From a virus, in the IMG/VR virus record IMGVR_UViG_3300050821_018050, positions 1 through 64,000 of that record: a DNA stretch of 64,000 bases, one strand, 5' to 3'. The notes beneath the pieces are model-generated. The model made no database searches. It worked only from the letters and a program-made list of their open reading frames with translations, and had not been told where the DNA came from. A program made the translations under genes and the position numbers. The stretch's first letter is position 1. The number at the start of each line of letters is the position of its first letter. Positions 7,242 to 41,813 of this stretch are shown here, in pieces.

Positions 7242-7742
7242 ATGAAGTCTTACGGTGTAATATATAAAATCACTAATAAAATCAATGGGAAGGCATATGT
7301 TGGACAGACGGTTCAATCATTAAGTGTCCGCTGGTCTAAACATAAATCCAGCCACACTCATTGCAGAATACTTAAAAAAGCAATGGACAAGTATGGTATC
7401 GATAATTTTACCATAGAGTCGATTGTATCAGCTTTTAATGCCGAAGGTTTACACGAACTAGAAGTTCAAATGATAAAAGAGTTTAATACCGTTACTCCCA
7501 ACGGTTATAATATGAATACCGGCAGCGATTGTTCGATAAGTTCCCCAGAAGCAAAGGCAAATAAATCTGCAGCACTTAAGAAAAAATATTCCGATCCGGC
7601 ACATGCAAAAAAAATGCAAATCATTTTCCAGAATCCTGAACGCAAGCGTAAAATTGGCGAAGCCGCACAAGCACGATGGAATGACCCTAATTATAAAGCA
7701 AAGATGATTGAAAAGCGTCGAGCGAAGGTGGGTACGTGTTAA
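7242..7742 (+). CDS. GIY-YIG homing endonuclease
   Basis: GVIYKITNKINGKAYVGQT, RW..H, E..I, PNGYN, NUMOD-like basic C-terminus. Confidence 0.9.
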   Translation: MKSYGVIYKITNKINGKAYVGQTVQSLSVRWSKHKSSHTHCRILKKAMDKYGIDNFTIESIVSAFNAEGLHELEVQMIKEFNTVTPNGYNMNTGSDCSISSPEAKANKSAALKKKYSDPAHAKKMQIIFQNPERKRKIGEAAQARWNDPNYKAKMIEKRRAKVGTC

Positions 7743-9334
7743 TTTACGGTATTGGCGCAACACAGGCGATCGATAGCAGCGGCGAAATTCTTTCAGTAGA
7801 AGGATGCGACATTTCAGATGTTGCGGCTGGAAAAGCGTTTTTTAATTGGGAGCACTCAAACGATGGAGCAGATACAATCGTAGGAGCCGTAACCTACGCT
7901 AAGAAAATCTATTCATTGGCAGAATGCGAAAATGATAAACAAAAAGAATGCTGGGAAGCCTGCCTCTTACCCATGGTTTATATCGAAGGGCGACTTTTTG
8001 ATAAAGAGGGTCATGTAGGAGCTATTTGTTTGGCCGCTATGTTTAGATCATTTGCTGCTCGCGGCGAAAAGATTCAGATAGGTACTTCTATTGAAGGCGC
8101 TACTATGCAGCGCGGTCAGGGGCCAGAGCATAATATTTTAATGCGCACTCTAGCTCGTAGGTGGGCGATCACTTTAAGACCATGCAATAAACAATGCATG
8201 CTTTATTTAGATAAAGATGAATATCCAGACGTTCTAAAATCAGAAACTTTTAATTTCATGGATATCGCTCCTCAAGATGTACCAGCACATGGTTTCATTA
8301 ATATTGAAGATCCTATCGCAGATATCTACAATACAATCGCTGAATTAAATAAAACTCTTGATGCAGGGGGCGGTGCAACCTGCGCTCCTTCACAATTAGT
8401 TGGCGGCGCTGCGCTTGGTGTAGAAAATCTTGTTGGTAGTACAAAAGATCGTATTAAGAATGCATATAAAAAATGGGACCGCAAAAAAAGTTTAAAGGCT
8501 CACATGAAAGCCGAACTCCCAGATGTTGCTGAAAAATACATAGAACATTTTGATGATATTGCTAATGAATTACAAATAAAAAAATCTGAAGGTTTGATTA
8601 GAATTGAATCAGATAAGCAGGGCAATGATGGAGCTACCGCATCTCAAAAGGCTTTACTAAATGGAACTTCTGTTTCTGCTAATGGAAGTCCCAGCAGAAT
8701 CGCTACAAATGATAATGGTCAAGTATTAGATATTTATTCATCATCTATTACGCCAACAGGCGGCGAAACAGCTAAAAATGCGGCTTCTTATTATGCAGCA
8801 GCTGATGATGTATTTGGTCTTGGCGATCATGTTACTCCTACGGCCTTTTTCCTCCATCAAACTTTCCCTATGGATGGAGCACCGTTACATTATGCTGTAG
8901 CTCAGCCAGAAGGTCAATCGGCACTTATTGGCAAAACATTCGAAGATTCTTTTGGCAAGAATAAAGAACTGTACCAAAAAATTGGCCTTATGGATGCAAT
9001 ACTTGGCCATGGTCATAGAATATGTGGTAATATACTGTTGAATAAAGGTAAACCTATTTTGATGGATAATCATCACGCTTTCGAATATAATCAACCTTCA
9101 GGCATGCACCAAAAACTCCACGGCGGAGATATCATGGGTGAAGATACAAGAAATTGGCTGATGTCGATTGATCCAAAAAAACTTGCGGGGACACTAGCGA
9201 GTAGTAAAATTGGATTAGATCGGGTTAAAAAAGCCATAACTGCTTTAAAAATCGCGCAGGCTCATAATCATCATCCGATTGACAAAATAGTAGAAAAAAT
9301 CTATCATATAGAAATGGATCCTGTACAGCAATGA
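7736..9334 (+). CDS. Prohead protease fused to a C-terminal kinase-like domain
   Basis: DSSGE, NWEH (His40), GTSIEG (Ser118), AIT.RPCN motifs of HK97/U35-like head proteases; C-terminal LMDAILG..HR..GNILL...LMDN resembles the PI3/4-kinase/HipA fold. Confidence 0.8.
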   Translation: MLIYGIGATQAIDSSGEILSVEGCDISDVAAGKAFFNWEHSNDGADTIVGAVTYAKKIYSLAECENDKQKECWEACLLPMVYIEGRLFDKEGHVGAICLAAMFRSFAARGEKIQIGTSIEGATMQRGQGPEHNILMRTLARRWAITLRPCNKQCMLYLDKDEYPDVLKSETFNFMDIAPQDVPAHGFINIEDPIADIYNTIAELNKTLDAGGGATCAPSQLVGGAALGVENLVGSTKDRIKNAYKKWDRKKSLKAHMKAELPDVAEKYIEHFDDIANELQIKKSEGLIRIESDKQGNDGATASQKALLNGTSVSANGSPSRIATNDNGQVLDIYSSSITPTGGETAKNAASYYAAADDVFGLGDHVTPTAFFLHQTFPMDGAPLHYAVAQPEGQSALIGKTFEDSFGKNKELYQKIGLMDAILGHGHRICGNILLNKGKPILMDNHHAFEYNQPSGMHQKLHGGDIMGEDTRNWLMSIDPKKLAGTLASSKIGLDRVKKAITALKIAQAHNHHPIDKIVEKIYHIEMDPVQQ

Positions 9335-16573: not shown

Positions 16574-16673
16574 ACAATTCCTCAAGCATATCTACTAGTT
16601 GCTCATTCGTAGGTTTTTCGCTAGTAGTCGGTTCAGTATATTCATATGAAAAAATCAGAGATTTATCTTCCAT
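16533..16673 (-). CDS. Small acidic protein, 46 aa (not in ORF track)
   Basis: MEDKSLIFSYEY...STSNIA*; TTGCCA-N17-TATATT, 6 nt, then ATG. Confidence 0.6.
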   Translation of the reverse strand: MEDKSLIFSYEYTEPTTSEKPTNEQLVDMLEELYELQKMGSTSNIA

Positions 16674-18636: not shown

Positions 18637-20025
18637 ATGGACTTGATTAAGCAATTAGAATCGCTGGTTAAGACCTTAGAAGCGGGAAATTATAATTCCG
18701 CTCCGGGTACACTGGTACAAGGGTCTGCTTTGCAGTCAGAAGATCTTTCTTCTGTAATGCATAACGTGACCTTCACTCAAGAAGAGATTAAGCTTCAAAA
18801 GCTTTTCGGCAAAAAGAAAGCAAAATCTCTTACAATCCAATTCAATCGCCAACTGTCTTATGGACGTTTCGGCGGATCAGCACAACGCGAAGGCGCTGTG
18901 GGTGATGTTGACGTAGGTGACTACGTTCGTGCTACGGTCCCTATGTGCTTTTATAGCCATGTGCGCCGTGTCACGGAAGCTGCAAATCTCGTAGAAGCAT
19001 TCGACGGTATCAAAGCCGAAGATCGCGAAGCGGAAAACGCAGCAATCAAATTAGCTGCTGATATCGAGTTTGATCTTTTTAAAGGTAAAGCTGATTTCTC
19101 AAATGCAGGTGTATTTGATGGTCATCCGAACGCTATGCCAGAGCTTCCAAATATGCTCGGCTTAGATGCTCAAATCCGTCAGTCTGATATGCTCGTTACA
19201 ACCCAAGACTTGATGTTTGCTGCTTATGGTAGCAATCAATCAGTTGTTCTGGCTCAAAACGCTGCATTAGACCAAATCGTTATCGAAGATGCACGTTTAC
19301 GCGCTCGCTTGAATTTCTCTCAAGCTAAAAATCTTTATATCGATCCATCTGTTCTCTCTAGCTACAATAAAAAAGTAGCTTTAGGAACTGGTGCAAACAG
19401 CCTACAACGCATTGTTCTCGCAGGTGGCCCACAAACGGCTTCTGGTGCGGAACTTCGCGAACAATGGACCAATCACGGTAACGTGAAACTCGAAGAATCA
19501 GATTTCCTTCGTGGTAAAACTGGCCCATTGCGTCCAAACATTGGATCATCTGCTGCTCCAGCAATTACTACCCAACCGGCTGCTTCTGGTTCAGGTTCAC
19601 TTCTCGCTGCAGGCGCTTACATTTATACTGTAACCGCTTCTAACGAACGCGGTGAATCACCAGCTACGGCTTGTGCTTCAGTAACTGTAACTGCAGGTCA
19701 AATCGTTACCTTGACGATCACTGCTCAATCAGGCATCAAGTACTATAGCGTATATCGCGGAACGACTGCAAAAAATGCAGCATTCATCGGTAACGTTGCA
19801 GCAACTGGCGGACCAGTAGTATTTACTGACCTTGGCAATAAAGCGCCAGGTTTCGTAACTGGCTACTTGATCGACGAAAAAACCTGGGAAATGCATGACT
19901 TAGCTCCTTACAGCCGTAAAAAGCTCGCTCAAGCTGACCTTTCTACTCCAGAAGCGCATTACGCGTTTACCACGGTAGCTGGATACCAACCTCGTAAAAA
20001 TGTCATCGTTGACAACTTATTTTAA
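18637..20025 (+). CDS. Major capsid protein (Herelleviridae-like)
   Basis: LVK|TLEAG..APGTLVQGSALQSEDL N-terminus, IEF.LF.G.AD, Ig-like insertion YTVTASNERGES...YSVYR, terminal NV. Confidence 0.88.
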   Translation: MDLIKQLESLVKTLEAGNYNSAPGTLVQGSALQSEDLSSVMHNVTFTQEEIKLQKLFGKKKAKSLTIQFNRQLSYGRFGGSAQREGAVGDVDVGDYVRATVPMCFYSHVRRVTEAANLVEAFDGIKAEDREAENAAIKLAADIEFDLFKGKADFSNAGVFDGHPNAMPELPNMLGLDAQIRQSDMLVTTQDLMFAAYGSNQSVVLAQNAALDQIVIEDARLRARLNFSQAKNLYIDPSVLSSYNKKVALGTGANSLQRIVLAGGPQTASGAELREQWTNHGNVKLEESDFLRGKTGPLRPNIGSSAAPAITTQPAASGSGSLLAAGAYIYTVTASNERGESPATACASVTVTAGQIVTLTITAQSGIKYYSVYRGTTAKNAAFIGNVAATGGPVVFTDLGNKAPGFVTGYLIDEKTWEMHDLAPYSRKKLAQADLSTPEAHYAFTTVAGYQPRKNVIVDNLF

Positions 20026-36246: not shown

Positions 36247-38784
36247 ATGAGACCTCCTATGCGCGAAGGCGATACAGAAACTATGAATAATGGCGAAACA
36301 TATGCTGCCATAAATCATCCTGATCTCGGCTTAGTTTGGGATTTACATCCACAGCATCATGAAGAGAAAAAACAAAAGTTTTTGGTTCAAGCTAAACAAT
36401 GGCTTCAACACCAACCGCCAGAACATCATGAAGTGATCCGATCATTTGTAAATAAGATTTTAAAAGATCCCAACAAGCATTTACGCGTAGGCCAAGATAC
36501 TCGAACTGGCCCAACGGTACCTCGTTTCCGTCACATTAATCAAATGGTAAATGATCATCCTGACACAAAACTGACAGTACATTCACCAAATTCATTGACA
36601 TTGCAGGTTAAGCGTCATAGCCATGATACAAATAATGAAGGTTTATCCAATTTTCACTATGATATGACGAATGATGTTGTAAAATCAGAAGATTTATGGT
36701 ATAATGGAGTATATGGACTCTATAAAGACGAATTCGGGAATAACTATCGAGTCTCTCATGAAGCTGGGGCCTGCTCTATCTTCAGACGAAAGAGTGGCGA
36801 TTTGGGAAAAAGCGAATTTGGGTATGATCAGCTCGATGAACCAAGTACTAAACTTATCCTTGGAAGAATTCAGCCTCTTCTTAAATCTTTACGATACGGG
36901 AGCCATTCTGGAATTTCTGACCCCATCTCAGATGAAAGCGATAATGATCCATTTCAAGGTGACGGGTCATCGATACTAGAAAAAGGTGAAAAAGTGCATT
37001 CTGGAATTATGGTCGCAATACCAATTCCTACTGATATTGGCGAAAAGATTGCCGTTAAGAACGGCGAATCGCCAGATAAAATGCATGCAACGCTTCTATA
37101 TGTTCCTAAAGTTGGAGACAATGAAGAAGTATTTTATAAGATTGTTGCTATAGTGTCGGAAGCAGCCAAGACTTTTGCGCCATTGAAATCAAAAATTGCT
37201 GGGATCGGTCGTTTTAGTGCTAGTAAGTCAAGCGACGGCAAAGATGTCTTTTATGCTGGCTATGATGCCCCTGCATTACCCGAATTACGTCAATATATTT
37301 TTGATAAAGTAAAAGAATCTGGAATTGATTGGGAAAGTAAATTCGGATTCACTCCCCATATAACTTTAAAATATATTGGTACTGAAGACGAACTTCCACA
37401 AAATCGTCTTGAAGGCGAGGAATTCATTTGTGACAAAATCATCATCAAGTCTCAAAGCTTCAAAGAAGAAGAAACATTTACGGGAGATCGAGTTGCAAAA
37501 TCGGATCAACTGTCAGCTCATTTTAGTTCCCTTCTTAAATCTGGTGATGGTGGGGGTAAATTTATTCGAAGATTGCCCGATCAGCATAGCAATAGATTTG
37601 GGTCCGAGTGGTACAAAAAATCTAAAAAAGATAAACGATTAGAAATTCAAAAACCTGATCCGCATGATAAGATACCCTTAAAAACTTCCATTGCCGATGC
37701 CGTTGCTTCGGTTCTTGGCCCAAAAATTAAAAAAGAAGAGCTTGATAAGGGGGCGGCACAACGTCTTTTTCCCGTAGAATCCCCTAAACCGCTACCCACT
37801 TCTTCTAAATATAATTTAAAGGTTCCAGGAAGAGAAAAAGAAGAACAATGGCAATCTGGCATGAATGGTAGAGATTTGCTTCCTGTGCAGTCTAACAATG
37901 AAAGAGCAAGAGGTTTATTAAAATTAACTGGTCAAACTAATCATAGAAAAAATTCTAAAACCGGCGAAAATGAATTTTTATTGCATCGCGCTCACCATCC
38001 ATCTGAAGTTTTTGGTGAATCCCATAAAAGTAGATCTTCATCTTGGACACCACGTAAATGGGTAGCAGAAGAAGAAGCTAAAGTTCATCAAAAAGAACAT
38101 CCCTCTAAAATAACATCGGCATGGTTTCCAGAATCTGATATAAAACATTATACTTTTCAGACTCCAGGCGCATTTCAATCCGAAGATGGTAAACCATACC
38201 CAGAATTTGGATTTGAAAAAGAAGTGGTTATTAAGCCAGGACACAAAGGCATTATACACAGTCAAAATGATATTGTTAAAAAATCAGAATATTTAAGTAA
38301 AGCTGACGACTGGAAATCAAGTTACGAACAGCATTTATCGCAGCCCAACAAATTAATCCATTATTCTAAAAAGGCGGGATTAACATCTTTGGATCCAACT
38401 TTCCAAGGAACCGGCGCGCCGTCTGAAGAATACAAGCACGGATTACCTTCAATCCCCCGTACATATTTTTATCAACATGGCACCGAACCAGAAGATATTG
38501 TGAAACAAGGTGCAGTTGCAAAATATACGGCTACTTTAAAACCGGAACATAAAATTTATGACTTGGCCCACGATAAGGACAATATTCACCATAAATTAAA
38601 AGTAGCTTCTATGGGTAAACAAGTTAACCCAGGAGTAGTAAGTTCAGATGATTATTTGCATGCTATTAAAGCCGCAGGTTACCACGGCTTCAAAAATTCG
38701 GCGTCGACCCAGCTTCCTAATGTTATAGCACTTTTTCACGCCCATCCGATAGATTACGAGGAGACTGTCCATGAAAAAACGTAA
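36247..38784 (+). CDS. Multidomain polyprotein: unknown His-rich domain, 2H phosphoesterase, R-S-E ART-like domain, H-Y ART-like domain
   Basis: HATL/HITL (aa 280/371); LHR...SSW...EKE (aa 581/598/657-659); IHYS...LDP...YFY...AAGYHGF; domains bounded by xxK|SE-type motifs. Confidence 0.75.
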   Translation: MRPPMREGDTETMNNGETYAAINHPDLGLVWDLHPQHHEEKKQKFLVQAKQWLQHQPPEHHEVIRSFVNKILKDPNKHLRVGQDTRTGPTVPRFRHINQMVNDHPDTKLTVHSPNSLTLQVKRHSHDTNNEGLSNFHYDMTNDVVKSEDLWYNGVYGLYKDEFGNNYRVSHEAGACSIFRRKSGDLGKSEFGYDQLDEPSTKLILGRIQPLLKSLRYGSHSGISDPISDESDNDPFQGDGSSILEKGEKVHSGIMVAIPIPTDIGEKIAVKNGESPDKMHATLLYVPKVGDNEEVFYKIVAIVSEAAKTFAPLKSKIAGIGRFSASKSSDGKDVFYAGYDAPALPELRQYIFDKVKESGIDWESKFGFTPHITLKYIGTEDELPQNRLEGEEFICDKIIIKSQSFKEEETFTGDRVAKSDQLSAHFSSLLKSGDGGGKFIRRLPDQHSNRFGSEWYKKSKKDKRLEIQKPDPHDKIPLKTSIADAVASVLGPKIKKEELDKGAAQRLFPVESPKPLPTSSKYNLKVPGREKEEQWQSGMNGRDLLPVQSNNERARGLLKLTGQTNHRKNSKTGENEFLLHRAHHPSEVFGESHKSRSSSWTPRKWVAEEEAKVHQKEHPSKITSAWFPESDIKHYTFQTPGAFQSEDGKPYPEFGFEKEVVIKPGHKGIIHSQNDIVKKSEYLSKADDWKSSYEQHLSQPNKLIHYSKKAGLTSLDPTFQGTGAPSEEYKHGLPSIPRTYFYQHGTEPEDIVKQGAVAKYTATLKPEHKIYDLAHDKDNIHHKLKVASMGKQVNPGVVSSDDYLHAIKAAGYHGFKNSASTQLPNVIALFHAHPIDYEETVHEKT
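36677..36705 (+). promoter_or_regulatory. Intragenic sigma70-type promoter
   Basis: TTGTAA-N17 (ending TGG)-TATAAT; ATG at 36713. Confidence 0.7.
36713..36979 (+). CDS. Nested +1-frame gene, 88 aa, inside the polyprotein linker
   Basis: MDSIKTNSGITIESLMKLGPALSSDERVAIWEKANLG...; own promoter; helical amphipathic composition. Confidence 0.6.
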   Translation: MDSIKTNSGITIESLMKLGPALSSDERVAIWEKANLGMISSMNQVLNLSLEEFSLFLNLYDTGAILEFLTPSQMKAIMIHFKVTGHRY

Positions 38785-39589
38785 CATGGATTGGAAATTG
38801 GATCAATGCAAATTTGCAGCAGTTCAATATAAATCAAAAATTGAGTGGAAAATGAAAGATCATAAATCTTACGAAGCAGCGCGTAAAAATAAATGGATAA
38901 AAGAATGTTCTGAACACATGGTAAGACCTCAAGTGCATAATAAAAAATGGGATTTCGAATCCTGTAAAATAGAATCTTTAAAACACAAGACTAGGGGTAA
39001 ATGGCAAGCACATCACGCTTCTTCTTATCAGATCGCACAAAGGAACGGATGGCTAGAAGAATGCTGTTCGCATATGTCTAACGCAAGAAATCTCAACAAC
39101 ACTTGGACGTTGGATAGATGTAAGTTAGAGGCATTAAAATACACAACTAGATCCGAATGGTGGAGAACAGATGGGAAATCATATGACGCTGCCAGAAGTA
39201 AAAATTTTTTAGAGGATTGCTGCGCTCATATGCCAAAGCGTAGTCATTCTTCTATGCAAGAAAATATAATTTTATCTATAGTAAAAAATAAATTTCCACT
39301 CGCGTGCTCTCGTAAATTCGGTAAAAATAAAAAATTTCAATCCGGGAATAGATTCGAGCTTGATATTTATATTCCAGAATTGAATAAGGGTATTGAATTC
39401 AATGGAGAATATTGGCACAGAGAAGGGTTGTTGCGTAAAGGTAAAGACCCCGCAAAATACCATAGTTTGAAGCGAGATTTTTTTAAGAAACTATCCATAG
39501 ATTATATAGAAATTTGGGAAAATGAATGGGCAAAAAATAAAGATTTATGCCTCTTAAAAATTAATGATTTTTTAGGAGTTAGCTTATGA
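38771..39589 (+). CDS. Free-standing homing endonuclease (repeat DNA-binding modules plus PD-(D/E)xK/Vsr-like domain)
   Basis: Three W...C..E..K...R.EW....SY..A....W...C..HM repeats; ELDIYIPELNKGIEFNGEYWH. Confidence 0.85.
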   Translation: MKKRNMDWKLDQCKFAAVQYKSKIEWKMKDHKSYEAARKNKWIKECSEHMVRPQVHNKKWDFESCKIESLKHKTRGKWQAHHASSYQIAQRNGWLEECCSHMSNARNLNNTWTLDRCKLEALKYTTRSEWWRTDGKSYDAARSKNFLEDCCAHMPKRSHSSMQENIILSIVKNKFPLACSRKFGKNKKFQSGNRFELDIYIPELNKGIEFNGEYWHREGLLRKGKDPAKYHSLKRDFFKKLSIDYIEIWENEWAKNKDLCLLKINDFLGVSL

Positions 39590-41292
39590 AAAATCCATTT
39601 GATGACCATCACATTATTTTTAGTGCCGAAGGTGCTATGCATCCGACAAAACATCAAGTTGTTCCTTCTCATGAGGAAGTTTTAGATTATCTAAGATCGC
39701 AGGGAGAAAATGCTGTTGGGGTTCAAGGTCATTATGGCTCTCCAGAAAGATCCATTCTAGTTAATTCCCCTAAAAATCCAAAAGGCCTTCATCAGCTTGC
39801 TACCGATCTAGGTCAAGATTCTATTCTTGAATCCAAAAATGGTCAACATGCATTAACTTACTTAAACGGTGCCCAAAAAGGAAAAGTAATCACTGGAGAA
39901 GGAACTACATTCCATCCATTGAAGCCGGAAGACCTTTATACGACTATTAAAACCCCTAAAGGTGATGTGCATTTTAGTCATAATTTAAATTTTAGTCAAT
40001 CTGCAGTAAATAAATCAGAATCTGGAATGGGTGATCTATCTACTGACGAAGATACGAATGATTTGATGAATCGAGAAGAAAATAAATATTTCGTCAGTAG
40101 GGATCAATTGGATCTTCTTACCCAAACGGCCAAAGAAAATCTTAAAGAGGGTGATATTGATACGGAAAGTCGCTATAATACCAATAGAACTTTTTACATG
40201 GATAATAAAGATTTAGACTCCATGAAAGATGGATTAGATGGCATTAAGCCACGACTAAAAATCAGAGTAAGACAATATGCTCCGAATCATAAAGATTGGG
40301 AAAATATTGCTTATGTCGAAATCAAGGCAAAGAAGAAAGACGGGATGACGAATAAATGTCGCGTGCGTATTTATGCTGACGACATCGAACCTTTCCTCGA
40401 AGGAAAGCCTTTAGAAAATAGCAAAGATTTAATTAATCTTAATAAAGATATAACAAAAAAACTTTTGGATAAAAGAATTTTAGCGGTAAACAATATTGTT
40501 TCCACGTATGGATTTAAAAAACAAATTGAAGTTAGATATGAACGCAGAGCTTATACTGGCAAAAAAGTCAGGATTACTATTGACGATAATTTGAAATATT
40601 TGGATGCCACAGAAATTTCTCCAGAAAATAAAGAAGCTATTAAAAATACAGATGGCTGGAAGCGTATGGACAAGCATACAGATAAACTTCGCCGTAAAGA
40701 CTATTTAATAGTAGAAGTCAAACATCAAGGTGATGCGCCAAGATGGGTAAAAGATCTTTTGGATAAAACTGATGCAAAGGAAGTAAAATTTTCCAAATAT
40801 TGCGCCGCCGTAGCCTCGTATATTAAATCTGGCAAAAAAGAAAATAATATTAGTAGACTTAGTTTCGACTTTTCTGATAATCTGGATAAGACAGAAAGTT
40901 TAACTAAGATGCCAAAAGTTTTTACCGGAACACCAAAAAAGCCACATACTACTGTATATCGCATGCAAGATAAACATGGAGAAGGTCCGTATATGGCCGG
41001 AATTCCAGCCCTAGACAATCATGGTTCCTCTTCCTCGGCGCGAGGACTATCTACTCCTGATCCAAAATATGATCAAGGATTCAATGCCACTGATTTAAAA
41101 GTATTACACGATTCTCCTGCTGTTAAATTTGGGTTTGAAAAACCTGAACATGCGCATGAATGGTTTAGTCCAGATGAAATTGAAGAATTGGGGAATCACG
41201 GGTTTACACTTCAGCCCGTTAAAGCTGCGCACGTCTGGTCATCAGGTAAACAGGCATTTTATAAGAAGTATGTAAAGCCTAAAAAGCCTTAA
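39586..41292 (+). CDS. Multidomain polyprotein: DUF3293-like domain, VTC domain, small C-terminal phage domain
   Basis: SAE...G.YG.PE.S.LV...LGQDSIL; REENKY, YMDN, KIRVRQY, VEIK, YERRAY, VRITID, VEVK, FSKYC; separated by VNK|SE and LDK|TE.LTK|M. Confidence 0.8.
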   Translation: MKNPFDDHHIIFSAEGAMHPTKHQVVPSHEEVLDYLRSQGENAVGVQGHYGSPERSILVNSPKNPKGLHQLATDLGQDSILESKNGQHALTYLNGAQKGKVITGEGTTFHPLKPEDLYTTIKTPKGDVHFSHNLNFSQSAVNKSESGMGDLSTDEDTNDLMNREENKYFVSRDQLDLLTQTAKENLKEGDIDTESRYNTNRTFYMDNKDLDSMKDGLDGIKPRLKIRVRQYAPNHKDWENIAYVEIKAKKKDGMTNKCRVRIYADDIEPFLEGKPLENSKDLINLNKDITKKLLDKRILAVNNIVSTYGFKKQIEVRYERRAYTGKKVRITIDDNLKYLDATEISPENKEAIKNTDGWKRMDKHTDKLRRKDYLIVEVKHQGDAPRWVKDLLDKTDAKEVKFSKYCAAVASYIKSGKKENNISRLSFDFSDNLDKTESLTKMPKVFTGTPKKPHTTVYRMQDKHGEGPYMAGIPALDNHGSSSSARGLSTPDPKYDQGFNATDLKVLHDSPAVKFGFEKPEHAHEWFSPDEIEELGNHGFTLQPVKAAHVWSSGKQAFYKKYVKPKKP

Positions 41293-41530
41293 GTTCAGGG
41301 AATAGAGTCAATACTAAATCACCATATTTATAAACTCTGTAGGCGTCTAATGTTGGCTCGTACTCAAAGGTTGCCTCACGATAGTTGCATTGATATTTTT
41401 TCCCAAAAATCACGCATAGAGCTATCCAGTAAGTAGTCTTAATATCAATTGTTTGTCGCCCGCGAGTTTTTCTGTAGGAATGGCTGAGAATATAATCAAG
41501 TATACGATTTTTAAGGTCTTTTTTTATCAT
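41279..41530 (-). CDS. Hypothetical protein, LExRI-like
   Basis: MIKKDLKNRILDYI...; start likely ATG 41530. Confidence 0.55.
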   Translation of the reverse strand: MIKKDLKNRILDYILSHSYRKTRGRQTIDIKTTYWIALCVIFGKKYQCNYREATFEYEPTLDAYRVYKYGDLVLTLFPELKAF

Positions 41531-41813
41531 GCAGCGCCTTAAGTTCTTTAAGAGATTGTCGCATTCCGTCATGAAATTTCTTAGTTTTGACTATACCGAT
41601 CAATAAACGCTGTCTTACGCGTTCTCTGGTAACTCCAAAGTCTTTGGCTATGTTATTAATCGGCTCTCCCATAGCGTAAAGCTTCATAGTCCATAATATT
41701 TCGATATTATATGGATTTCGTTGAAATAATGGTATGTAATGCAATACCTCTGATTTGGTAGGTATACCATCATTAAACCTACGCATAAATCTAAAAAACA
41801 TATTTCTAAGCAT
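41511..41813 (-). CDS. Small protein with sigma70 region-4-like HTH
   Basis: IAKDFGVTRERVRQ; TTGACA(41849-44)-N17-TATTAT(41826-21) then ATG 41813. Confidence 0.7.
   Translation of the reverse strand: MLRNMFFRFMRRFNDGIPTKSEVLHYIPLFQRNPYNIEILWTMKLYAMGEPINNIAKDFGVTRERVRQRLLIGIVKTKKFHDGMRQSLKELKALHDKKRP

Follow-up and report, generated by a model that had tools for sequence, protein, structure and literature searches.

An 88-codon open reading frame lying wholly within a phage polyprotein gene, in its +1 frame, is almost certainly a real gene, because the frame, its start and stop codons and its promoter are conserved in relatives and selection acts on the nested frame. Selection and composition together suggest that the nested frame is the constrained one, and that the overlying polyprotein spacer is read-through. 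Comparison of loci also shows a fixed linkage of the nested gene to the domain encoded directly upstream of it. The stretch of DNA analyzed here (the window, 64,000 nucleotides) makes up the first 64 kb of a virus record of 159,805 bases, the genome of an uncultured myophage of about 160 kb (G000), and includes its head-tail region; no matches were found among prokaryotic genomes. The features of the window that concern us are as follows.

18637 to 20025, plus strand: major capsid protein, matching phrog_752 and phi812-type capsids; the reference for the cleavage motif.
36247 to 38784, plus strand: head-region polyprotein of polyvalent type, 845 residues, with repeated [LIVM]-x-K-[STAGN] motifs; the host reading frame.
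36286 to 36684, plus strand: DPNRH domain (a name coined here), basic and uncharacterized, residues 14-146, directly upstream of the nested gene.
36676 to 36690, plus strand: upstream putative cleavage motif V-V-K↓S-E (arrow, putative cut), residues 144-148; its codons also contain the -35 hexamer.
36677 to 36705, plus strand: predicted sigma-70-type promoter of the nested gene, with -35 TTGTAA, 17 nt, and extended -10 TG-n-TATAAT.
36685 to 36984, plus strand: polyprotein spacer, residues 147-246, open, its residues without purifying selection.
36713 to 36979, plus strand: nested gene, 88 residues, +1 frame; product acidic (pI 5.5), all-helical, the predicted binding partner of the upstream domain.
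36976 to 36990, plus strand: downstream putative cleavage motif L-E-K↓G-E, residues 244-248.
37000 to 37494, plus strand: 2H phosphoesterase module, after the spacer here and missing from the polyprotein of the relative G001.

The initial annotation had described a complete gene with its own promoter inside a polyprotein, and the promoter, the ATG, the 88-codon frame and four putative cleavage motifs are all present in the DNA as described. The hexamer TTGTAA (36677-36682) is followed after a 17-nt spacer by TATAAT (36700-36705), with TG at 36697-36698; the ATG at 36713 lies seven bases past TATAAT and opens a frame that is +1 relative to the ORF at 36247-38784 and closes at the TAG at 36977-36979, a stop built from the Leu and Glu codons (CTA GAA) of the L-E-K↓G-E motif. 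Translation is predicted to begin on a leaderless message, with its start at or adjoining this ATG. The candidate shares its layout with the clear sigma-70-type promoters of this phage, which are leaderless (TTGAC-17-TAnnnT-5 to 7 nt-ATG; about 14 cases in G000) and examples of which are found at window positions 16673, 20120, 21586, 22641 and 41813, and the same type occurs in G001.

Considered by itself, this genome makes a weak case for the gene, because promoter-like sites are at chance level (37, against 42.5 in shuffled sequences) and four ATG-led +1 ORFs of at least 88 codons are found in its 61 large genes. The nested stretch has the weakest frame preference among all tested gene windows, and the nested ORF is the most gene-like of 27 long stop-free +1 runs, yet its codon score lies below those of all 14 free-standing leaderless genes. 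The suggestion that the polyprotein stretch looks like off-frame sequence is borne out only in part, as codon usage is intermediate in both frames rather than cleanly off-frame. These measures would suit a chance ORF and a chance promoter in an ordinary fast-evolving linker, as would the failure to find a free-standing homologue of the 88-residue protein in the protein collection, the Atlas, viral and metagenome contigs, the rest of G000, G001 or G005, by searches that are insensitive for short proteins; the polyprotein-frame spacer matched only itself among 1.8 billion representatives. Our initial reading was indeed of a chance ORF, base composition favoring the polyprotein frame, and it was overturned by the relatives. 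The chance explanation is left with next to no probability, being refuted by comparative data: the nested frame is under purifying selection in two clades, its start, stop and initiation signals are kept, and it is present in ten of ten loci.

One of these relatives, G001 (160.6 kb), was reached through its capsid protein, which is 83% identical. It carries a nested ORF of identical 88-codon length, start and stop (42% identity) behind TTGCAA-17-TGtTATAAT-7-ATG; over the TG, the polyprotein has Trp in the window and Cys in G001, and the promoter is nonetheless kept. A third locus, L046, encodes an 85-residue orthologue behind TTGCAA-17-TATACT-7-ATG. The putative leaderless promoter is thus kept in all three near loci, with the consensus TTG[C/T]AA-17-TATA[A/C]T-7-ATG, and the promoter claim is sustained both by this conservation and by its fit to the leaderless class of the phage. 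Gene callers overlooked the nested gene in those relatives whose gene tables were examined.

Which of the two frames conservation acts on was one of the tests named in the initial annotation, and the ratios of non-synonymous to synonymous change (pN/pS) point to the nested frame and not to the polyprotein. A comparison of the window with G001 gives pN/pS values of 0.44 for the nested and 1.16 for the polyprotein frame, with ordinary orthologues at 0.19-0.48; the nested frame ranges from 0.44 to 0.67 across near pairs. Pooled over the near clade, with an alignment weighting both frames equally (as in all pooled values given here), the ratio is 0.54 for the nested against 1.11 for the host frame. 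By codon position, conservation peaks at nested position 2 (0.65), which falls on polyprotein position 3, and is weakest at nested position 3 (0.44). Of the roughly 2,040 sixty-codon windows in G000 and G001, the one over the nested gene is the most extreme: its frame-0 ratio of 1.33 exceeds all others (next 1.13), its +1 ratio of 0.49 is below all others (next 0.58), and no other spacer in this comparison gave such a signal.

The host frame over the nested gene drifts, as the comparative data show, and yet it remains open. From the nested protein sequences and local codon usage, four to seven host-frame stops would be expected per locus and none is observed (log10 P -2.5 to -4.8 each), in a sample biased towards an open host frame because seven of the ten loci entered it by way of proteins 248 residues or longer (the window, G001 and G005 were found otherwise). 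The claim that the polyprotein reads through the nested gene therefore stands, its frame being free of stops across loci. Across the family, Arg, Gly and Ser are enriched in the spacer and Pro and Lys are scarce.

The spacer is bounded by a short motif, L/V-x-K-[STAGN], found at its start in 14 of the 14 polyproteins listed and at its end in 13; in the exception, P0026, a second site was not seen at the usual distance. The two motifs lie 94-107 residues apart in the near clade and about 51-61 apart in most distant proteins, with 78 in G005, and in six loci the nested stop codon falls within the Leu codon of the closing motif or adjoins that Leu. Head-region genes, a set picked with the motif already known, hold 30 copies against 4.8 expected, and genes elsewhere hold 15 against 17.4 expected. 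The N-terminal L-V-K↓T of three capsid proteins aligns with V-V-K↓S of the phi812-type capsid (PDB 5lii), and the 439-residue chain of 9row begins immediately past that Lys, consistent with maturation there; both bracketing motifs match this putative capsid maturation site. Internal motifs had also been noted in the spacer of the window, LGKSE (residues 186-190) and LLKSL (residues 211-215). Both are there, but LLKSL is lost in one relative and LGKSE varies. No prohead protease gene was identified by profile match; a candidate is the gene at 7736-9334.

Well-characterized phage proteases provide a parallel for such processing. The T4 gp21 protease cuts at L/I-x-E in packaged proteins (Alt and the IP proteins), and the T4 and phiKZ proteases cut at short motifs and discard propeptides (PMC9026906). 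The putative processing resembles that of these substrates in its three-residue motif, its several sites per propeptide and the discarding of fragments from the head, and differs in that the motif ends in Lys and that the discarded stretch carries a second gene. Given the motif enrichment, the alignment with the capsid site and the T4 and phiKZ parallels, the polyprotein is likely cleaved, and excision of the spacer is quite probable.

More distant relatives, G004 and G005, were reached through the tail sheath. There the N-terminal domain of our polyprotein lies near the end of a 1025-residue protein, and no recognizable orthologue of the 88-residue nested protein was found in either genome. 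A profile search located the DPNRH domain at varying positions in 16 proteins; it is about 130 residues long, with invariant W18, P62, H65, G75, R80, R82 and H83 (domain numbering). DNA was available for ten distinct loci, and in all ten the domain ends in a K-[SNT]-E motif at which a +1 ORF starts; in each the ORF is complete and on the same strand as the host gene. The nested proteins of the seven distant loci (56-79 residues) are mutually similar, with 28-48% identity to that of L049, and the pooled pN/pS of this clade is 0.57 for the nested and 1.21 for the host frame. In place of a promoter these loci have a GGAG ribosome-binding site, 4-7 nt before the start in seven of seven loci against 2 of 183 background starts, a count somewhat inflated by the picking of each distant start among a few candidates. 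The codons of the upstream cleavage motif also hold the start region of the nested gene in these relatives.

The helical pattern of the distant proteins aligns with the C-terminal half of the window's nested protein, around a near-invariant Glu and Tyr, though the near and distant proteins cannot be called homologous on statistical grounds (hhalign E 0.038, probability 1.4%; HMM cross-search negative). A tandem-repeat origin of the longer near-clade protein was an impression by eye without statistical support and was set aside. In the window, the position of a Shine-Dalgarno-type start is shut by a stop (36680-36682) in codons that now provide the -35 hexamer, from which it appears that the near clade swapped Shine-Dalgarno initiation for a leaderless promoter.

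The initial annotation had viewed the nested gene as an unrelated insertion, and this reading needs to be changed, because the +1 gene follows the same upstream domain in all ten loci, wherever the domain sits, and the two products are predicted to bind. An early accessory gene inserted in a tolerant spacer, with no functional tie to the adjoining domain, seems to us improbable. A slot that accepts different cargo could explain why near and distant nested proteins are not demonstrably homologous, and why the near clade has its own promoter; it would hardly explain why the gene trails the domain at the N-terminus, in the middle or near the end of very different polyproteins, why other spacers of G000 and G001 give no signal, or why the complex model described below beats all its controls. 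Two polyproteins, P0028 (domain at residues 469-600) and P0033 (residues 901-1033), stop right after the DPNRH domain and therefore fit a partner that was once a separate downstream gene. The partner gene probably once stood downstream of the domain and was overrun by a read-through fusion.

Programmed frameshifting into the +1 frame, giving a domain-plus-tail fusion in place of a separate protein, is also conceivable, for the +1 frame is open from 36683, just past the end of the domain, and from further upstream in G001 and L046. We regard it as very unlikely: an ATG with promoter spacing is kept in three loci and Shine-Dalgarno spacing in seven, and no shared slippery sequence was seen by eye.

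AlphaFold predicts compact helical structures for both nested subfamilies (pLDDT 79), and fold searches with both gave no clear structural match. A HeH/LEM-like fold was a by-eye impression without statistical support; in the comparison with HeH, SAP and Rho-N folds, SAP reached E 0.05 in one member, the top Foldseek rows for Rho were at E 2.8 or worse, and the best VIA Z was 3.8. The domain and the nested proteins matched nothing significantly in Pfam, PHROG or PDB.

As the fixed linkage suggested a partnership, the domain and the nested protein were modeled together. The complex model has an ipSAE of 0.79, against 0.00 for the best of three controls; the ipSAE mark used was reached by 58 of 80 solved complexes and by 2 of 110 mismatched pairs. 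Contact agreement between runs is at least 92% and the partner pLDDT at least 87. Nothing similar was found among solved complexes, which makes it unlikely that the model recalls a known one. The modeled interface joins W18, R80, R82 and H111 of the domain to L57-Y60-D61-T62 and H86-Y88 of the partner; its residues are barely more conserved than the rest (p = 0.07 for the domain, no rise for the partner). The pI of the domain is mostly about 10 (8.3 in the window's copy) and that of the partner 4.1-5.5 in eight of ten cases. On the strength of the model, the nested protein probably binds the DPNRH domain.

Pairing of an acidic with a basic protein is typical of inhibitors, and in toxin-immunity and type II toxin-antitoxin pairs a small acidic protein is encoded right downstream of a basic domain. 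The resemblance here lies in an acidic partner predicted to cover the conserved face of a basic domain; the differences are that the partner gene is inside the host ORF and that there is no family match. That the nested protein is an inhibitor is plausible, at a little under an even chance. The words 'effector' and 'inhibitor' rest on charge, conserved residues and the model, because no family or activity is known for the domain. A chaperone, packaging adaptor or activating subunit that binds the domain would be equally expected to show the linkage and the complex model, and in distant relatives the gene led by a Shine-Dalgarno site could be co-translated from the late mRNA. We consider such a role unlikely, though the strongest of the alternatives: the near clade's own host-type promoter suggests expression ahead of the late operon, and the model covers invariant basic and His residues in the acidic-basic manner of an inhibitor.

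On balance we favor a packaged effector and a separately expressed inhibitor, two genes packed as one module into a single stretch of DNA. Frame 0 would encode the late head polyprotein, which a prohead protease would cut after L/V-x-K, freeing modules such as the basic DPNRH domain and throwing away the 100-residue spacer. The spacer would merely have to stay open and in frame, and its DNA would therefore be free to encode a protein in the +1 frame. The nested protein would be produced separately, from a leaderless host-polymerase promoter in this clade and a Shine-Dalgarno site in distant relatives, and would bind the conserved basic face of the domain, most likely inhibiting it as an immunity or antidote protein and so protecting the infected cell, or the phage DNA or RNA, during polyprotein synthesis or after delivery of the domain. 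Cleavage, packaging, early timing, effector activity and inhibition are steps that we infer, and an inhibitor made ahead of, or alongside, the packaged effector fits best. More tentatively still, a family of large myophages may package a toxic or nucleic-acid-acting domain in a protease-diced polyprotein, with its specific antidote in the +1 frame of the discarded spacer. If true, effector and antidote would travel between polyproteins as an inseparable cassette yet be expressed at different times, and the cleavage motifs would double as the promoter or start, and the stop, of a hidden gene.

Embedded phage genes, and a tolerant spacer over a constrained gene, are already known. In the Rz/Rz1 spanin genes of phage lambda, a gene is embedded on the same strand in another frame (PMC6139136, PMC5295617). 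As there, a small gene lies wholly within a larger phage gene, and its product is predicted to complex with that of the host gene; unlike Rz and Rz1, which are membrane lysis proteins with a functional overlapped part of Rz, both proteins here are soluble, and the overlapped stretch is without purifying selection, bounded by putative protease sites and, in one clade, provided with a promoter of its own. The nested protein has neither Cys nor a signal peptide, the host N-terminus is hydrophilic, and no Pfam or PHROG match was obtained. The spacer of the hepatitis B virus polymerase overlaps preS, and its frame has been modeled as arising by overprinting (PMC9093120). It likewise is a tolerant interdomain tether over a more constrained gene in another frame; that virus is eukaryotic, its genome tiny, and its spacer stays in the protein, whereas the phage genome measures 160 kb, its spacer is probably excised, and the model predicts binding of the nested product to the adjoining domain.

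The host gene itself resembles the polyvalent proteins (Iyer et al. 2017, PMC5512222). The parts of that study considered here describe them as virion-associated proteins with several domains, in which conflict domains (2H phosphoesterase, ART, GNAT, NUDIX) are shuffled and from which peptidases release them. Unrelated domains are shuffled here too, with 2H in the window, NUDIX, GNAT and others in homologues, and a varying domain position. It departs from them in that neither Pfam nor PHROG has a family matching the DPNRH domain; nested genes were not encountered in those parts of the source. A search of the polyprotein for an embedded peptidase gave only a weak Tox-MPTase4 match (E 0.019), which overlaps the 2H domain.

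The novelty lies in two protein families, gene ends that coincide with cleavage motifs, an apparent switch in mode of initiation and a predicted pairing. The locus is a well-controlled example of complete dual coding on one strand of a large double-stranded DNA phage: selection is on the unannotated frame, and the long annotated one is carried along as passenger. It shows that spacers removed by a protease, as this one probably is, can host genes, suggests how a mobile effector domain could retain its regulator through domain shuffling, and adds two undescribed protein families with a predicted interface. A rule for finding more cases follows: scan the +1 frame of Arg-, Gly- and Ser-rich spacers flanked by cleavage motifs.

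Several further observations were made in these genomes. The gene at window positions 39586-41292 encodes a head-region protein in which Pfam strongly matches a VTC (polyphosphate polymerase-like) domain (E 2e-35), alongside an N-terminal module that is weakly SAM-lyase-like. The G001 polyprotein (L008:8302-12051) has 1249 residues, no 2H module, and a C-terminal module that by eye looks like the end of the 39586-41292 gene, suggesting that modules move between genes. Three methyltransferase-like genes (for DNA or other substrates; PCQ/PCK motifs, by eye) lie in the head-tail region of G001 at L008:4653-7241, with none in the window. At window positions 41511-41813, on the minus strand and flanked by late genes, is a leaderless gene for a 100-residue protein with a sigma-region-4-like helix-turn-helix motif (by eye). 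A second 88-codon +1 ORF in the same polyprotein (37376-37642, TTG start) has a gene-likeness of -0.45, lies in a region missing from G001, and is probably due to chance. Beyond the window, near position 146230 of G000 on the minus strand, a 1188-residue polymerase-like gene contains a 146-codon stop-free +1 run, which is stop-free in both genomes over 60 codons, with selection on frame 0 (0.37 against 1.19).
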